From contig CAYRPF010000123.1 in NCBI GenBank assembly GCA_964426185.1, forward strand, positions 1 to 5,559: 5,559 nucleotides of DNA. Direction: 5' to 3'. The first letter of the stretch is position 1. The number at the start of each line of letters is the position of its first letter. The notes under the pieces were generated by a model. The model ran no database searches. It was not told where the DNA came from and was given only the letters and a program-made list of their open reading frames with translations. Below are positions 1 through 5,559 of this stretch, one piece after another. Both the position numbers and the translations under genes were made by a program. The stretch is from an uncultured archaeon. GTDB taxonomy: Archaea; Asgardarchaeota; Lokiarchaeia; Sigyniarchaeales; Promethearchaeaceae.

Positions 1-8
1 CTATCTTC

Positions 9-281
9 CTATTCATTGAAAATTTTCCGAAATCTATCAAATGTGGATTTAATTAGCGAATAATGAATGAAATTTCCCTTTTTCCAGCCTTGAATAAGTT
101 GTGCCTTCTCAAGTTTTTTCAAATCACGAGATACAGCGGGCTGACTTTTTTGTAGTAGGGCTTCAAACTCACACAAGCACATATCTTTTTGAGAAATCGC
201 TTCAATAATCATCAAACGATCAGAATTGGATAAAACCGAAAAAATTTGATTTAGAAATTGAAATTTGCTGTTGTTTCGTAT
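9..281 (-). pseudogene. ArsR/SmtB-family winged-helix transcriptional regulator, probably a 5'-truncated remnant
   Basis: The frame is open from 281 to TAG at 11-9: ...QIFSVLSNSDRLMIIEAISQKDMCLCEFEALLQKSQPAVSRDLKKLEKAQLIQGWKKGNFIHYSL. This fits the ArsR pattern F-x-x-L-x-x-x-x-R-L-x-I, CxC-E, SQPAVS-x-(H/D)-L-x-x-L and the wing G..x.Y-x-L. Similarity extends upstream of the track's TTG (215), but there is no ATG/GTG/TTG upstream before the in-frame TAA at 284-282. Confidence 0.75.
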
Positions 282-935
282 TTAGCTGATAAGATTCTGC
301 CGGGTTATCCTTATGCAACCGATCCAAAAACGGGTATGCAATTGTTTTATGGATATATTGGAAAATCTTCATTTGGAGACATAATACTGAGAATCTTTCT
401 TGGTCCATTGGCTGCAAGCTGGGAACCGGTTTTTCGATATTTGGCAGATAGTTTCATCGGTAGTATTATCGGAATTTACATCGGTCAAGATTCCAAAGAT
501 ATAAAGACTAATTGGTTGAAAAAATTCGTATGGGTGGGATTTATTATGTTTATCGTGGGTGTTATGGGAGTAAATCTCAATAATGCGTTAGTTTTGATTA
601 ATAATGGTATAGATGGTGCCTTAGATCTTTATCTGAAAATTTCAGAGCACAGGTTTTGGACTGCAGCAAACGGGGTCCCGGTATTGGGTTGGTTGTTCCA
701 ATTTCTATTTCTAAACGGCTTTACCATCTGTGGGATCATGCTTTTGATTCGATTGGTGGAATTTAGAGGAAAGGGCCAAAAATTTGCTGAAAAAACCAAA
801 TATTTCAGAAGAATTGGTTTTATTGCATTTACCATCTATACCATCCAATGGGTATATAATTTAATGTTCTTTATTGTCTCGTCCATCAACGGGGAGCCGT
901 ATAAGCGAGTCTTTTGGGGTGGAGGTTTGTTTTGA
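258..935 (+). pseudogene. Polytopic membrane protein fragment (DUF418/DUF1624 acyltransferase-like by resemblance), likely truncated at both ends
   Basis: 225-aa ORF with several hydrophobic segments (FVWVGFIMFIVGVMGV, VLGWLFQFLFLNGFTICGIMLLIRLVEF, IGFIAFTIYTIQW). EPVFRYLA and FFR-like R-x-G-x-x-A-F-T-x-Y segments are typical of the C-terminal half of such proteins. The start is a TTG just after an in-frame TAG (252-254), with no room for a promoter, and the ORF stops abruptly after WGGGLF. Confidence 0.55.
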
Positions 936-1250
936 TAAAGAGTGTTTTTTTCAATCATCGTAGAATAAAAGTCAGTCTCATTTAACCATGAACCTAAATA
1001 AAGCATGTGAGAAAGGAATTGATCGAAAATTCTTCTATAAAAAAATACATAAGTGGTCTGAATAAAAATTTTATGTATTTGGAATAAACATTCGAAAACC
1101 GAAACTTCCATACCTCAAGGTTAAAAAGATGAAACTAATTCTAAAAATACAGGTATAATATAGTAAATATGGACGCTTCGTTAATGGAAGATAAAATAAT
1201 CTACTAAGCTAATGCAGTGTTATAAAATAAATAATTTACCAATAATAATT

Positions 1251-1258
1251 TTTATAAA
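1251..1258 (+). promoter_or_regulatory. Candidate archaeal TATA box (TTTATAAA) for the Ubl operon
   Basis: TTTATAAA ends 45 nt upstream of the ATG at 1304, and an SD-like AAGGT lies at 1292-1296. The region is very AT-rich and alternatives exist (TTATAAAA at 1220-1227). Confidence 0.3.
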
Positions 1259-1303
1259 TGAAACCACACAAACATATTAAAATAAACAAAAAAGGTTATA
1301 AAA

Positions 1304-1558
1304 ATGAATGAAAATAAAATTAGCATTATCTTTATCATAAATGGCAAAGAATACCAAGTGGAAGCTAATATTAACTCTAAAGTAAAACAAGGGGTTAGTA
1401 AAGCTTTGAGAGACGCTGGAATATCAGGTTCCCCAATGGAATGGAAAGCGAAAAAAGAAGATGGGACTAATGTGAATTTAGATCAGAATTGGGAAGAACA
1501 AGGGATTAAAGAAAATACAAAGATTTTTTTGACTAAGGGAGCAGGTCGTGGAGGTTAA
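1304..1558 (+). CDS. bilA: Ubiquitin-like beta-grasp modifier protein (DUF2604-like, BilA-type), single domain with C-terminal GG
   Basis: 84 aa. N-terminal beta-hairpin ISIIFIINGKEYQVEAN, helix VKQGVSKALRDAG, W-x4-E-D-G-x-x-V, last strand TKIFLT, and tail GAGRGG-stop. First gene of a cluster with E2, JAB and E1. Confidence 0.93.
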   Translation: MNENKISIIFIINGKEYQVEANINSKVKQGVSKALRDAGISGSPMEWKAKKEDGTNVNLDQNWEEQGIKENTKIFLTKGAGRGG

Positions 1559-1568
1559 CCTTTTTTTT
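1552..1568 (+). terminator. Possible leaky intra-operon terminator after the Ubl gene
   Basis: Perfect palindrome AGGTTAACCT (1552-1561) spanning the stop codon, running into a T8 tract (1561-1568). Oligo-T tracts are archaeal termination signals. Confidence 0.35.
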
Positions 1569-1592
1569 GTTTAATAATTCAATAAATTCTGG

Positions 1593-2150
1593 TTGATTTC
1601 TTTGGATGACAATTATTTTTCTTCTACTACATCTTCGACAAAAGAGAATTGTTTTATTATATTTCCATCAGACTCCCATGTCCCATATATAAGAAATGTA
1701 CTTTATATCATAAAGCAGAGTTTAAATGAATTTAAAATTAAACCAATTACACTTAGTGGAAAAATCCGTTCAAGTGAAGACTATTTAGATAAAGTTATCG
1801 AGTTAATTGATAAATGCAAATTTGGGATAATTATGTTAGATGGGCTTCGGTTTAATGTTATATTAGAAATGGGAATTATGATTGGGAGAGAAAAAGAGAT
1901 CATTTGTCTTCAAGAAAAGCAAGCAGAAATCAATTTGAAGTCTATTTATCCAGATGAACCTACAAAAGAAATAACAGGTTTAACACCTGGTTCCTTTGAT
2001 AAAATAATAAATCCAAAAGTTGAGATTAGTATACACCTCTCTGATTTTGGAAAAAGACATATATGTATTTATGATAAAAATAATCTGGAAGAAACAAAAC
2101 ATAAAATAATTGACGAAATATCAAAAGTATTAGAACTCTTAGTACAATAA
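1593..2150 (+). CDS. TIR-like / nucleoside 2-deoxyribosyltransferase-like (flavodoxin-fold) protein
   Basis: 185 aa. Beta1 CFIIFP, helix DYLDKVIELIDKC, strand FGIIMLD, signature N88-V-I-L-E92-M-G94-x-x-x-G-x-x-K-x-I-I, and late LSDF..HI..YD. TTG start at 1593, or at 1602 (GGTTGA at 1591-1596 could act as SD). Co-oriented, 34 nt after the Ubl and 18 nt before the E2. Confidence 0.75.
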   Translation: MISLDDNYFSSTTSSTKENCFIIFPSDSHVPYIRNVLYIIKQSLNEFKIKPITLSGKIRSSEDYLDKVIELIDKCKFGIIMLDGLRFNVILEMGIMIGREKEIICLQEKQAEINLKSIYPDEPTKEITGLTPGSFDKIINPKVEISIHLSDFGKRHICIYDKNNLEETKHKIIDEISKVLELLVQ

Positions 2151-2168
2151 AACGTTATTTATTGAAAA

Positions 2169-2795
2169 ATGATGAAAACTATGGAAGAAAAACCAAAAAT
2201 TGAAGGAAATAAACTGACAATTACCATAGGTAACTTCCCTTTTAAACTAAATCCTGAAGGAGTTAAATTTCAACCGATTCAAATACAAATTAACTCATCT
2301 ATTATAAGAAGAAGACATATCAAAGTTAACTCTGAAGTTGATCTACTTGATAGTAGAGTCGCAAAATTGTATTTCAAAAAGGAAGTAAATATGCTTAAAA
2401 AGAAGGCTGAGGTGTATAAATCGATATGGTCAATCAAGGAGATTTATTTTCCAAATATATTTCTAAATATTTTCTCTTTAAAAGGAAAAATTTTGTTTAT
2501 TTTATCAATTAATTTGAAAAACTACAATTATTATCCTCCAGAATTTGGATTACTTACTAAAGATATGAAAATATTGAAAAAAATAGATTCAAAATACGTT
2601 ATACCAGATAAGAACGGGTATATTCATATTAAAAATCATAATCAAGGACTTTGGTTTTGTACCCCGGGAACTTACAAATATCATGATTTTTACTTTGACA
2701 TTGATCGCTGGGAACTTGAAAGATATAATACAACATGTGATTTAGTTGAAACAATCAATCGAATCATCGGAATGATAGATAGAAGTCAAGATTAA
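2169..2795 (+). CDS. bilB: E2-like Ubl-conjugating enzyme of the CEHH (Metal_CEHH / type II BilB) family
   Basis: Motifs D-x-x-V-A-x-x-x-F-x-x-E-V, W-x5-FP, N-Y-N-x-x-P-P (E2 YPxxPP equivalent), F-C164-T-P-G-T-Y-K-Y-H172 and D-R-W-E-L-x-R. Located between the Ubl and JAB/E1 genes. The start could be 2169, 2172 or 2181. Confidence 0.82.
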   Translation: MMKTMEEKPKIEGNKLTITIGNFPFKLNPEGVKFQPIQIQINSSIIRRRHIKVNSEVDLLDSRVAKLYFKKEVNMLKKKAEVYKSIWSIKEIYFPNIFLNIFSLKGKILFILSINLKNYNYYPPEFGLLTKDMKILKKIDSKYVIPDKNGYIHIKNHNQGLWFCTPGTYKYHDFYFDIDRWELERYNTTCDLVETINRIIGMIDRSQD

Positions 2796-2814
2796 GGGAA
2801 GTGTTTCTACATCA

Positions 2815-3291
2815 ATGAATAAAACCCATCAAATCTATATTCCTTATACAATTATTGAGAAAACTCTTCAGTTAATCAAAAAATATGGGAAAAAATTTAC
2901 TGAAGGTTTTGTTTTATGGGTTGCATCTGAAAACTCCGATTTTTATAAAGTAAAGGATGTATGGGAACCCAAACAACAGAATTCTTTCATTTCGTATTAC
3001 ATTCCTGAAGAAGAAGTCCATAAATTAAATGTAAAAATATATAAAAAAAAGTTGATACTTATTGCCCAAATCCATTCTCATCCGAGTTATGCATATCATT
3101 CTCAAACAGATGATGATTATGCAATAATACATTTACCTAATTTATTTAGTATTGTCATCCCATATTTTGGAAATATTGATAACTCAGAATTTTTTGAAAA
3201 ATGTGCAATATTTCAATTAAAGAAGAATCATTGGAAAAAAATATCAAAAAAGAAGGTGAAAAAGACATTCAAGATATTAAAAGAAGAATAA
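2815..3291 (+). CDS. bilC: JAB/JAMM (MPN+) zinc metallo-isopeptidase (deubiquitinase-like, BilC-type)
   Basis: Catalytic E30 (TEGFVLW) and complete metal motif H87-S-H89-P-S-Y-A-Y-H-S96-Q-T-D99, followed by FSIVIPYFG. Confidence 0.93.
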   Translation: MNKTHQIYIPYTIIEKTLQLIKKYGKKFTEGFVLWVASENSDFYKVKDVWEPKQQNSFISYYIPEEEVHKLNVKIYKKKLILIAQIHSHPSYAYHSQTDDDYAIIHLPNLFSIVIPYFGNIDNSEFFEKCAIFQLKKNHWKKISKKKVKKTFKILKEE

Positions 3292-4811
3292 AAGAAGATT
3301 CGCTAAACAGAAATCTAGATAATTTTAAAAAGCTTACAAATATAGAGGATAAGCAAGCCTACTCACAAATATTTGATAATTTCAAACTTAATGTCATTTT
3401 ACAATGTAATGAGGATGGTAATTCAATCAATAAGAATGATGCTTTATCTGCGAGCATTTTTCTTAATATAGTAAGTAGATTTCTTTCATATATTTCATTT
3501 AAGGGAAATTATAAGTTGATTCAAAAAACTTTTCCTATGAAAAGCTTTGCTAATAGCTTAGAATCCAAAAATTTCGATGAATCTCCAGATTTAACTATTG
3601 TTTTTGGAAATAGAAGAATTGAATCTAAAAAGGTATATTATGTTACATCCAGTGGATGGAGTATATATATATCAAAATTAAAACCATGTAATTGGGATAA
3701 TTTTTTAGAAAATCCCCTTTCTGCATTATATGTTGGAAGCTTTATGGCAGGAGAAATCTACAAAATCTTGTTAAAAGATTATGTTTCCACAGAAATTCTC
3801 GATGAATTTATCTATGATTTTATTACTTTCGGACAAGACCAACAACCAGTTCTAGAACCCGAAATACCTGAATTTTTTAATATAGATTTAACTCTAATAG
3901 GTTGCGGTGCTGTAGGTCAAGCGATAGGATTAGCTTTAAAAGAACTAGAATTGCGAGGTAATTTAAACCTAATAGATAATGAAGCAATAGAACCGTCCAA
4001 TTTACAGCGTTATCCACTAGCTTTTGAAGAAAATGTGGGTCACCTAAAAACTGAACTACTTGCTCAATATATCATAGGCCGAAATAATCTTCTCTTAGTT
4101 ACGCATGAAATCAATACTTTATACCGAGTTGCCAAAAGTGATTATGAAATCTTGAATAGAATGAATGATGTTATTATTTCAGTAGATAATAAAAAAACCA
4201 GAATTGATCTCCAAGCTTCCCTGCCTAAAATGATATGGAACGTTTGGACAGATACGAGTAGAAATAATTTAAGATATGGATTTGGAAAACACGATTTTCA
4301 AGATGAATTTGAATGTTTAGCTTGTGCTTATTACCCTGACGAAAAAATTCCTGATCAAATTGAATTAAATGCAAAAATTTTAGGATTAACACCGGTAGAA
4401 ATTAATCAAAGAATCAAGAACAATGAATTATTCAAGCAAGAAGATTTGAATTATGTTTTTGAAAACTTTACTGTTCCTCCGAACCATATCAATAATTTAA
4501 AAAGTTTAGTGGGTAAACCGTTTGAAGAAGCTCTTCATGGGAAATGTGGAATATTTAATGTAAAATTATCAGAAAAACATGAACCAACTCCTGCCCCGCA
4601 TATTCCTACTTTAGCCGGAGTGCTGGTTGTGATATATTATATTCTCTCTAAAATTAATCCCACATTTTGTGATCAAAATATTTTCATCGGAGAGTATGAC
4701 GCTTTTTCGTATCCAAATAAAAATTGTATGCTAAAGAAGAAAAAAAATGATTCTTGTGTATGTAATGATGAAATATATCAACAAGCATATAACGAAAAGT
4801 GGTTATTATAA
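3201..4811 (+). CDS. bilD: E1 Ubl-activating enzyme (ThiF/UBA family; BilD-type with N-terminal inactive adenylation-like domain)
   Basis: G234-C-G-A-V-G nucleotide loop, D-x-E-x-I-E-x-S-N-L-Q-R-Y, K(TEL), V-D-N-x-x-T-R, Zn ligands C372-L-A-C375 and C519-V-C521, and candidate catalytic C449 (HGKCG) in an insert after CxxC. The ~230-aa N-terminal region (SSGW, NPLSALYVGSFMAGEIYK) looks like a degenerate ThiF repeat. The start codon is uncertain (see findings). Confidence 0.93.
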   Translation: MCNISIKEESLEKNIKKEGEKDIQDIKRRIKEDSLNRNLDNFKKLTNIEDKQAYSQIFDNFKLNVILQCNEDGNSINKNDALSASIFLNIVSRFLSYISFKGNYKLIQKTFPMKSFANSLESKNFDESPDLTIVFGNRRIESKKVYYVTSSGWSIYISKLKPCNWDNFLENPLSALYVGSFMAGEIYKILLKDYVSTEILDEFIYDFITFGQDQQPVLEPEIPEFFNIDLTLIGCGAVGQAIGLALKELELRGNLNLIDNEAIEPSNLQRYPLAFEENVGHLKTELLAQYIIGRNNLLLVTHEINTLYRVAKSDYEILNRMNDVIISVDNKKTRIDLQASLPKMIWNVWTDTSRNNLRYGFGKHDFQDEFECLACAYYPDEKIPDQIELNAKILGLTPVEINQRIKNNELFKQEDLNYVFENFTVPPNHINNLKSLVGKPFEEALHGKCGIFNVKLSEKHEPTPAPHIPTLAGVLVVIYYILSKINPTFCDQNIFIGEYDAFSYPNKNCMLKKKKNDSCVCNDEIYQQAYNEKWLL

Positions 4812-4858
4812 AAAATTCTTATTTTTTTGATTTCTCTTTATAATGAGTGGGAGTTTTC

Positions 4859-5559
4859 ATGAAAATATTAAAAGAGATACAAGATCTTGTTTCAAAACAA
4901 TCAGTCACATTTTTGGTAGGAGCAGGAATATCCTTTGATTTTCCATCCAATATAGAACCTTCTAATTTAATTATTAATAATATATTCACACATTTCTTCC
5001 CAAAATCAATAAAATATGACAAAAGAGATCTTAGTAAATTGAAAAATGTACGATTCGAAACAGTAATGTCAAAATTTATTAAATTATTTAATGAAAATTC
5101 ATCATTTATTAATTATTTCGCTGAAAAATCACAATTTAATCCGATACACTCTTTTCTAGCAAATCAATTATCTAAAAAAAATATAATCTTAACAACGAAC
5201 ATTGATTTATTAATAGAATCTGCATTTTGTAAACATTTTCCACATTTAAAAAATCAAGGAAAAACAATCATAACTAACGATGATTTTATTAAATTTTCTA
5301 ACCCAAAATCTCTTTTTAATAAAGGATTTTATCCAATTTATAAACTTCATGGATCTGCTTTTGATTTTTTTAACAGAGATTTTCCAGAACGTAATAAAGA
5401 AATAAAGGAGTATATTCAATTTAAAATTGAGAATATCTTAAAGTATAAGGATATTGATAAAAATTTTTTTCAATTGAATAAACCGCAACAAGATGTTTTT
5501 CAAAATTTAAATTATATTTTATTTGTTATGGGATATAGTGGAAATGATGATTTAGATAT
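4859..5559 (+). CDS. SIR2-like domain protein (SIR2_2-type, putative NADase), partial, runs off the 3' end
   Basis: Not in the ORF track. Manual translation from ATG 4859 (GGGAG at 4849-4853) is open for 233 codons to the window end: MKILKEIQDLVSKQSVTFLVGAGISFDFPS...NPIHSFLA...IILTTNIDLLIESA...PIYKLHGS...LFVMGYSGNDDLD. All sirtuin hallmarks are present (GAGxS, TTNxD, KLHGS, GYSxxD), with no Zn-finger cysteine pairs. Confidence 0.92.
   Translation, partial: MKILKEIQDLVSKQSVTFLVGAGISFDFPSNIEPSNLIINNIFTHFFPKSIKYDKRDLSKLKNVRFETVMSKFIKLFNENSSFINYFAEKSQFNPIHSFLANQLSKKNIILTTNIDLLIESAFCKHFPHLKNQGKTIITNDDFIKFSNPKSLFNKGFYPIYKLHGSAFDFFNRDFPERNKEIKEYIQFKIENILKYKDIDKNFFQLNKPQQDVFQNLNYILFVMGYSGNDDLD

Follow-up and report, generated by a model that had tools for sequence, protein, structure and literature searches.

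The DNA analysed here, hereafter the window, is the entire contig C123 of an Asgard archaeal genome assembly (GCA_964426185.1). It is 5559 bp long with 28.8% GC and carries eight open reading frames (ORFs); the host genome amounts to 3.26 Mb in 155 contigs, is 92% complete and 2.3% contaminated, and has 34.2% GC. Between positions 1304 and 4811, all on the plus strand, lie genes for a ubiquitin-like protein (Ubl), an E2-like enzyme, a JAB-type isopeptidase and an E1-like enzyme; with the exception of one extra gene placed after the Ubl, their order Ubl-E2-JAB-E1 matches that of type II Bil systems. We scored the ORF products against Pfam, PADLOC and NCBIfam, and all the genes named in a preliminary description of the window, made from the sequence alone, are present as ORFs. 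In addition, each protein was aligned with its relatives from other loci, and the resulting profiles were searched against the sequences of the Protein Data Bank (PDB).

The point of reference is the type II BilABCD system (CEHH/6C), encoded in the order Ubl, CEHH/E2, JAB, E1, with Ensifer aridi TW10 as the founding example and solved structures (PDB 8TYX, 8TYZ and 8TZ0; PMC10557695, Chambers et al.). The BilA-like Ubl of the window (1304-1558, 84 amino acids (aa)) is a predicted single β-grasp domain with a DUF2604 match (2.9e-14, 53.7 bits), and its C-terminus reads GAGRGG followed directly by the stop codon, with no tail. BilA (8tyx_A, 5e-14) is the top PDB match of its profile; the terminal Gly-Gly, conserved in the family alignment, is aligned with the terminal glycine of BilA (chain residue 97, the reactive Gly97; PMC10557695). 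Some related Ubls, unlike this one, bear a tail (FSS or MFD). The BilB-like E2 (2169-2795, 208 aa) belongs to the CEHH family: it matches Metal_CEHH weakly, and six of seven members of its family match as well, the best at 4.7e-5. The E2 profile has BilB (8tyz_C, 2.2e-5) as its top PDB match, with Cys164, the candidate catalytic residue, aligned with the catalytic Cys138. Cys164 and His172 are invariant in the family, the latter corresponding to His146 of BilB. An AlphaFold model of the E2 (pLDDT 63), compared by Foldseek, returns BilB chains as the first three matches and canonical E2s after them.

The BilC-like JAB/JAMM isopeptidase (2815-3291, 158 aa) is recognised by the PADLOC BilC model (8.9e-10), and its profile places BilC (8tyx_B, 9.5e-26) on top. 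Glu30 and HSHPSYAYHSQTDD are aligned with E33 and HSHPGRAYHSTTDD of that chain, the motifs being nearly identical; the pattern E...HxH...S..D (here Glu30, HSHP...HS..DD) is kept across the family and the metal site is intact. The BilD-like E1 (3231-4811, the ORF opening at 3201) is numbered here as the 526-aa protein starting at 3231, and it matches ThiF (5.8e-12) and PADLOC BilD (4.8e-7). Positions 27-504 of the 507 in its profile are aligned with residues 25-506 of the 535 of BilD (8tyz_A, top PDB match, 4.4e-51), from the N-terminal inactive domain through the active ThiF domain and the CYS insert to the C-terminal CxC. Conserved motifs include the G-loop GCGAVGQ, an invariant CxxC...CxC and HGxCG, the last of which is aligned with the Cys417 region of 8tyz_A. 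Cys439 in HGKCG is the candidate catalytic residue, and Cys362/365 together with Cys509/511 form the predicted zinc site. The Pfam scan gave no BilD_N match for the E1 family; precomputed annotation lists this domain for some E1 relatives, weakly where a strength is given.

The E1 gene overlaps the JAB gene by 61 nucleotides (nt; window 3231-3291). Overlaps of 52-61 nt between the JAB 3' end and the E1 5' end, in different frames, are found in several members of the same E1 clade (for example, L006 8001-8055 and L017 3033-3087), and the E1 N-terminus M-x-I-x-I-x-x-x-G-E-K-x-I-Q is conserved across them. This arrangement suggests translational coupling of the two genes.

Taking together the PDB profile matches, the Foldseek result for BilB, gene order, recurrence of the cassette in ten related loci and the conserved residues, we are confident that window 1304-4811 holds a complete and apparently intact type II-like Bil cassette of an archaeal branch, seated in a Loki-type Asgard chromosome. 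Homology of all four proteins, conservation of catalytic residues, gene order, host and physical linkage are direct observations. The preliminary description had spoken of E3-less Bil-type machinery with an E1 made of two ThiF repeats. Its reading can now be narrowed to a type II-like system, as all four profiles find an E. aridi chain first, and the E1 is aligned end to end with a structure composed of an inactive adenylation domain, an active one and the CYS insert. No E3 gene was found in the window, where RING E3, UQ_con and ubiquitin (PF00240) match no protein in Pfam.

Several observations weigh against this assignment. The PADLOC models of BilA and BilB match neither the Ubl nor the E2 of the window. 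The CEHH motif of E. aridi BilB consists of Cys138, Glu144, His146 and His151, the last being called a conserved neighbour of the catalytic cysteine (PMC10557695); its position is taken here by Phe176, in a loop where the alignment is gapped, and the CEHH glutamate, kept in four of seven E2 family members, is Lys170 here. The active-site loop of the E2 model (residues 162-184) has a pLDDT below 50. Finally, the archaeal E1 clade, described further on, is known from sequences alone, and its archaeal label is drawn from five named proteins and archaeal-looking gene contexts, most members being metagenomic.

Compared with the E. aridi system, the window encodes the same four proteins in the same order, each with its counterpart as the top profile match: a single β-grasp Ubl with a reactive-type C-terminal glycine, no E3, and an E1 that by homology comprises an N-terminal inactive domain and an active ThiF domain, with the candidate catalytic cysteine in a CYS insert and a Cys4 zinc site. 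It differs in the archaeal host and an E1 clade well separated from named bacterial E1s; in a Ubl that ends exactly at Gly-Gly, making pre-processing by JAB unneeded; in the phenylalanine and lysine of the E2 mentioned above; in the overlap of the JAB and E1 genes, seen at 55-61 nt in five of the related loci that were checked; and in a gene of another kind inside the cassette with a SIR2 gene after it. Type I Bil (Collimonas sp. OK412; Millman 2022; Hor et al., 10.1101/2023.09.04.556158) shares the Ubl-E2-JAB-E1 order and the lack of an E3, and the PADLOC BilC and BilD models match the JAB and E1 of the window. However, the type I Ubl has two β-grasp domains, ISG15-like, against one here, and with BilA and BilB unmatched the sequence affinity of the window is clearly to type II. 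The eukaryote-like systems of Caldiarchaeum subterraneum and Asgard archaea, built of ubiquitin, E1, E2 and RING E3, likewise conjugate a Ubl through an E1 and an E2 and possess a JAB-type deconjugase; in contrast to them, the window lacks a RING E3 and encodes an E2 outside the UQ_con family and a Ubl of the DUF2604/BilA type instead of PF00240. The window was rejected as a eukaryote-like archaeal ubiquitin system, with PF00240, UQ_con and RING E3 all unmatched there.

Contig C96 ends in the same 55 nt with which the window begins (100% identity, blastn), the sole end overlap of the window in the host assembly. In that assembly 39 contig pairs share such terminal 55-mers, the signature of an assembly graph with k=55, and the independent assembly GCA_054388175.1 (99.8% identical) runs unbroken from the C96 sequence into window 1-2038. 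Contig C96 encodes EMG1/Nep1 and the RNase P subunit Rpp21, core genes of archaea and eukaryotes; the top named matches of its Nep1 are metagenome-assembled genomes (MAGs) of Promethearchaeota and Promethearchaeum syntrophicum (46%), while Thorarchaeota and other archaea score far lower. Elsewhere the genome carries actin (432 bits), ubiquitin (PF00240), a UQ_con E2 and the ESCRT-II protein EAP30; none of 14 control genomes matched the ubiquitin and UQ_con families. The window does not stand out from the genome in its tetranucleotide profile (r 0.978, 37th percentile of 5.5-kb chunks), and its GC content, 5.4 points under the genome mean, falls within the lowest 1.2% of such chunks.

The host is thus confirmed as an Asgard archaeon of the Loki/Promethearchaeia type, as the preliminary description had proposed, and the contig is physically part of its genome. 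The C96 overlap, the independent assembly, Nep1 and Rpp21, the Asgard genes and the tetranucleotide usage exclude misbinning and chimerism as far as assemblies can show: where bacterial flanks or a chimeric contig had been envisaged, we find archaeal core genes linked to the window in two assemblies. The continuation of the window on its 3' side was not found among the contigs of the host genome. No tRNA gene or Rfam family was detected in the window, in C96 or in the joined assembly, and the window contains no meaningful repeats. Two genomes of the same genus align with the locus at 64-75% DNA identity in short pieces only, and the insertion site is not definable from them.

A word-based protein search returned about 38 close relatives of the E1 at 216-729 bits, after which scores dropped to at most 131 bits; the named ones come from Heimdallarchaeota (two) and Hermodarchaeota. 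A scan of genome contigs with a single peptide pattern returned two loci and adds a Promethearchaeota MAG with an E1 relative. The exhaustive profile search yielded 444 E1 representatives at E<=1e-30, and the names recovered for part of them include Nitrososphaera (615 bits), Pseudoneobacillus, Bacteroidota and Chloroflexi. Two trees, FastTree on 189 rows and IQ-TREE on 75, agree: a branch with 100% SH-aLRT support separates a clade of 57-60 rows from rows that include all the named bacterial E1s. The window E1 lies inside that clade, within a group of 17-20 rows (95-99% support), next to the Heimdall and Hermod proteins, and the Nitrososphaera E1 falls in the sister group. All named members of the clade are archaeal. 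This phylogeny sets the protein apart from the named bacterial E1s, and the term "bacterial-type" used in the preliminary description is misleading: it fits by first description, and the E1 belongs to a deep archaeal-named clade.

In all ten loci of this large E1 clade that were opened, the four-gene cassette is present at GC contents from 26% to 62%, and we therefore consider it a long-time resident of archaea. At the same time its distribution is sparse. At E<=1e-20 the E1 was detected in three of 400 sampled Asgard genomes, the host included; it was not found in the two same-genus genomes, and a query of IMG/VR viral contigs with a single peptide pattern found no relative. Such a distribution is that of an accessory cassette which moves horizontally, as defence genes typically do. 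Its island-like character follows from the rarity among genomes, the low GC and the defence-type neighbours of some related loci: restriction-modification, Vsr and insertion-sequence genes; PLD, methyltransferase and HEPN-NTase genes; NERD; and Nmad3/SLFN-AlbA_2.

Two side observations concern the E1 family. In the Promethearchaeota isolate YT5_1216 the E1 match (6539-8119) is interrupted close to the 5' end by two in-frame TAA codons, and the longest ORF free of stops begins further on, at a TTG, and gives 485 aa: either a decaying copy or a shorter E1. The Pfam label given to full-length bacterial BilD-like E1s of about 500 aa is Prok-E2_C (PF14459), and the name of one reads "E2 ligase fold family C protein"; the Prok-E2_C name may be misleading for such proteins, which align end to end with the E1 profile.

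The extra gene of the cassette (1593-2150, plus strand, TTG start, 185 aa) lies between the Ubl and the E2 with spacers of 34 and 18 nt. It encodes a stand-alone protein of the nucleoside 2-deoxyribosyltransferase (NDT)/TIR superfamily, N-glycosidase-like, matching CAP12-PCTIR_TIR at 1.7e-5 (25.2 bits, cut-off 24.7) and Nuc_deoxyrib_tr at 3e-3. The leading Foldseek matches of its AlphaFold model (pLDDT 80) are nucleoside 2-deoxyribosyltransferases, DNPH1, MilB, the retron Ec86 effector and TIR domains, and D83, E92 and D151 are invariant in the family alignment. The same domain occurs in 11 other Asgard genomes, N-terminal in long open frames. One full-length example (L038 1465-2958) has TPR repeats, and one copy (L006 17102-17575) is located 7.5 kb downstream of the Bil cassette of L006.

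Past the E1, an ORF from 4847 to the contig end at 5559 (plus strand) encodes the N-terminal, NADase-type SIR2 domain of a protein cut by that end (SIR2_2, 1.6e-7), with ATG 4859 as the likely start; the gene begins 35-47 nt after the E1. The motifs TFLVGAGIS, YPIYKLHGS and VMGYSGNDD are present, and no other protein of the host genome matches SIR2_2. Related SIR2 N-terminal domains were detected in 135 of 400 Asgard genomes, mostly of this order (124 of 148 genomes in two of its families), at up to eight copies per genome in frames of 600-1800 aa, in agreement with the earlier suggestion that the family is expanded in the host lineage. The two full-length relatives we inspected (L047 1872-4355 and L048 1749-3551) are SIR2-TPR proteins.

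Thoeris consists of a TIR protein, ThsB, and a SIR2-SLOG (or TM/macro) protein, ThsA. Here too a TIR-superfamily gene and a SIR2 gene stand a few kb apart on one strand; unlike in Thoeris, the Bil enzymes separate the two genes, and the folds nearest to that of the TIR-like protein are NDT, DNPH1 and MilB. We rejected Thoeris as an identification: PADLOC gives no ThsA or ThsB match, and the two full-length SIR2 relatives carry TPR with no SLOG detected, the C-terminus of the window protein itself being missing.

By homology with the solved E. aridi system, a likely course of the reaction can be proposed. The active adenylation domain of the E1 would adenylate the free C-terminal Gly84 of the Ubl, whose trimming would be superfluous in this copy as the protein already ends in Gly-Gly. 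The Ubl would then be loaded as a thioester on Cys439 in the helical CYS insert of the E1 and handed over to Cys164 of the E2, which would join it to lysines of the target with no E3 involved; the JAB enzyme would strip or edit the conjugates. Most likely, the cassette would defend against viruses or mobile elements as part of a variable low-GC island. The NDT/TIR-like and SIR2(-TPR) genes would most likely be adjoining effector-type defence genes from families typical of the lineage.

A housekeeping or stress-response protein-modification pathway with no part in defence is possible, if on balance unlikely: for bacterial type II Bil both targets and biological role are stated as open and a stress response is discussed (PMC11601603), several of the related archaeal cassettes adjoin core genes (ribosomal proteins, the his operon, NrdD/ArgRS), and the GC of the cassettes follows that of their hosts, suggesting long residence. 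However, such a pathway fits poorly with an E1 that was not found in the two same-genus genomes or in most of the Asgard sample, with a GC content below that of the host, with the defence-type neighbours of other loci and with the effector-type NDT/TIR-like and SIR2 genes that accompany the cassette here. These two genes also raise the question whether all six co-oriented genes make up one hybrid system, in which the Bil enzymes control the NDT/TIR-like or the SIR2 enzyme, or the latter act as abortive-infection effectors. We regard this as unlikely, even though the NDT/TIR-like gene sits inside the cassette with short spacers, the SIR2 gene closely follows the E1, both domains are classic defence effector domains and the catalytic-type residues of the former are invariant. 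The arrangement of Ubl, NDT/TIR-like and E2 genes also recurs in a second assembly at NCBI and in an ENA contig, and a JGI contig encodes identical or 99%-identical proteins; yet all these datasets appear to sample one population (99.8-100% identity). No gene separates Ubl from E2 in any of the ten related cassettes, among them the closest one, whose E1 is 60% identical. Elsewhere in Asgard archaea both domains head TPR proteins, those inspected not being beside Bil genes; with the number of SIR2 copies in this order, chance adjacency is plausible, and T runs after the Ubl and E1 stops together with TATA-like elements suggest separate transcription units. A complex prediction for Ubl, E2 and the NDT/TIR-like protein scored 0.09 against a mark of 0.32, evidence neither way. 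With no such insert in the ten cassettes, with the T runs and with a TATA-like element in front of SIR2, we take both genes as neighbours on the island, and it is rather unlikely that they are functional parts of the Bil pathway. Capture of the NDT/TIR-like N-glycosidase as a working fifth Bil component, possibly together with the downstream SIR2(-TPR), seems quite unlikely; if true, it would mean that Ubl conjugation is wired to nucleotide or NAD depletion, a hybrid of tagging and abortive infection that is not described for Bil or Bub systems.

Two further alternatives concern the origin of the cassette rather than its role. That the contig is bacterial, misbinned or chimeric, or that the cassette was recently imported from bacteria, could be argued from its short length (5.6 kb), its lowered GC and the Bil papers searched, which describe bacteria only. 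This is extremely improbable. Archaeal core genes are linked to the window in two assemblies, its left 0.9 kb duplicates, in diverged form, the adjoining archaeal region and its tetranucleotide usage is that of the genome. Recent import is further disfavoured because the E1 sits in the archaeal-named clade: its closest named relatives are from Heimdall-, Hermod- and Promethearchaeota, and the nearest named bacterial E1s are 24-29% identical and lie across a branch with 100% support. At the other extreme, the cassette could be an Asgard pathway of great age that has been passed down vertically and is either a direct ancestor or a sister of the eukaryotic E1 pseudo-dimer or of ISG15-like conjugation. 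Its E1 does combine an inactive and an active adenylation domain with a CYS insert and a zinc site, and the E. aridi E1 has been compared with eukaryotic ones (PMC10557695); Asgard archaea of the Loki, Heimdall and Hermod types, at the least, also have the cassette. Against this, it is rare and patchy among Asgard genomes and occurs in Nitrososphaera as well, its Ubl has one β-grasp domain where ISG15 has two, eukaryotic E1s match it over the ThiF core only, and ubiquitin and UQ_con of the eukaryote-like kind are encoded separately in the genome. We hold such a descent to be highly improbable, and an archaeal type II-like Bil cassette, probably devoted to defence, remains our preferred reading.

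In scores, eukaryotic E1s match the Bil E1 profile at positions ~195-310, with 21-38 bits. MccB, ThiF and MoeB all score higher, and BilD (177 bits) much higher. Together with the patchy distribution and the separate ubiquitin and E2 genes, this core-only match gives no support for a special relation of the cassette to eukaryotic E1 or to ISG15. The preliminary description expected the locus to bear on the origin of eukaryotic E1 and on ISG15; this part of it is not borne out, as we see no evidence to that effect exceeding what bacterial BilD had offered. Its notion of a second pathway holds, the ubiquitin and UQ_con E2 genes being found in the same genome. Two other ThiF-type E1-like genes are located there (C57 21493-21804 and C37 21689-22003), each matching the adenylation core only, and one of them may belong to the eukaryote-like ubiquitin set; outside the window, matches to the E1 profile in the host genome are confined to the ThiF core.

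In the Bil papers and reviews we searched, these systems are described and solved from bacteria only (PMC10557695, PMC11601603). The archaeal and Asgard defence surveys searched make no mention of Bil, ISG15-like or ubiquitin-like defence, save for 6A_MBL/Hypnos in one Asgard genome. The locus is an archaeal variant of a known Bil system, and the evolutionary weight first attached to it is not supported: the origin of eukaryotic E1 becomes no more testable, given the patchy distribution and the affinity to BilD instead of eukaryotic E1s. What the window does show is that a eukaryote-like ubiquitin set and a type II-like Bil cassette can coexist in one Asgard archaeon of the Loki type. The lineage of the cassette is old, its named members are all archaeal, and it is common to Heimdall-, Hermod- and Nitrososphaera-type archaea, which means that E3-less Ubl conjugation is now known from a wider range of hosts. 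The window also offers a compact, intact gene set for reconstitution, with a mature Ubl and identifiable candidate catalytic cysteines.

Concerning expression, the TATA-like octamers TTATAAAA and TTTATAAA (1220-1259, plus strand, found by pattern count) lie 45-85 nt upstream of the Ubl start and are a candidate archaeal promoter by inference only. Run counts on the plus strand give a T7 run at 945-951, after the stop of the preceding ORF (935); a T8 run at 1561-1568, 3 nt past the Ubl stop, possibly an archaeal terminator or attenuator; and a T7 run at 4822-4828, 11 nt past the E1 stop and followed by a TTTATAAT element, possibly a terminator and a separate promoter for SIR2. Three of the six plus-strand runs of at least seven T thus fall within 15 nt after a stop (935, 1558 and 4811) in a window whose intergenic share is 9.6%, as would fit archaeal termination at oligo-T tracts and transcription in separate units. 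Scans for sigma-70 promoters and hairpin terminators stayed at chance level. The TATA-like boxes and oligo-T tracts that had been cited as fitting an archaeon are real, their weight as evidence being small in DNA of 71% A+T. The AGGTGA cited as a Shine-Dalgarno sequence is not significant: it occurs twice with 1.7 matches expected, and the copy at 3254 encodes E-G-E of the conserved E1 N-terminus.

At the left end of the window, an ArsR/SmtB-type helix-turn-helix regulator is encoded on the minus strand (9-215; HTH_5 2.8e-9, NF033788 2.8e-14), with the motif CLCE...LIQGWKKGNFIHY. Window 2-283 is a diverged copy of C96 2374-2655 (blastn, 82% nt identity), where the ArsR gene adjoins an ACR3-type transporter gene; by this alignment, the window gene is a diverged partial duplicate of the ArsR gene of C96. 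Next to it, on the plus strand, a 225-aa ORF (258-935) corresponds to residues ~191-407 of a 560-aa paralogue on C96 (tblastn, 78% identity to C96 5841-6491), and window 282-917 is a diverged copy of C96 5844-6479 (blastn, 73% nt identity). According to the Pfam assignment of the full-length paralogue, the product is an acyltransferase-3/HGSNAT-like membrane protein. The membrane protein of the preliminary description thus exists as an ORF, not as an intact protein: it is an internal fragment of that gene and probably a pseudogene. As the left end consists of diverged copies of two separated pieces of C96, the Bil genes sit beside a rearrangement scar. The two source segments are 3.2 kb apart on C96, and the copy in the window lacks the ACR3-type transporter and BioY genes that separate them there.

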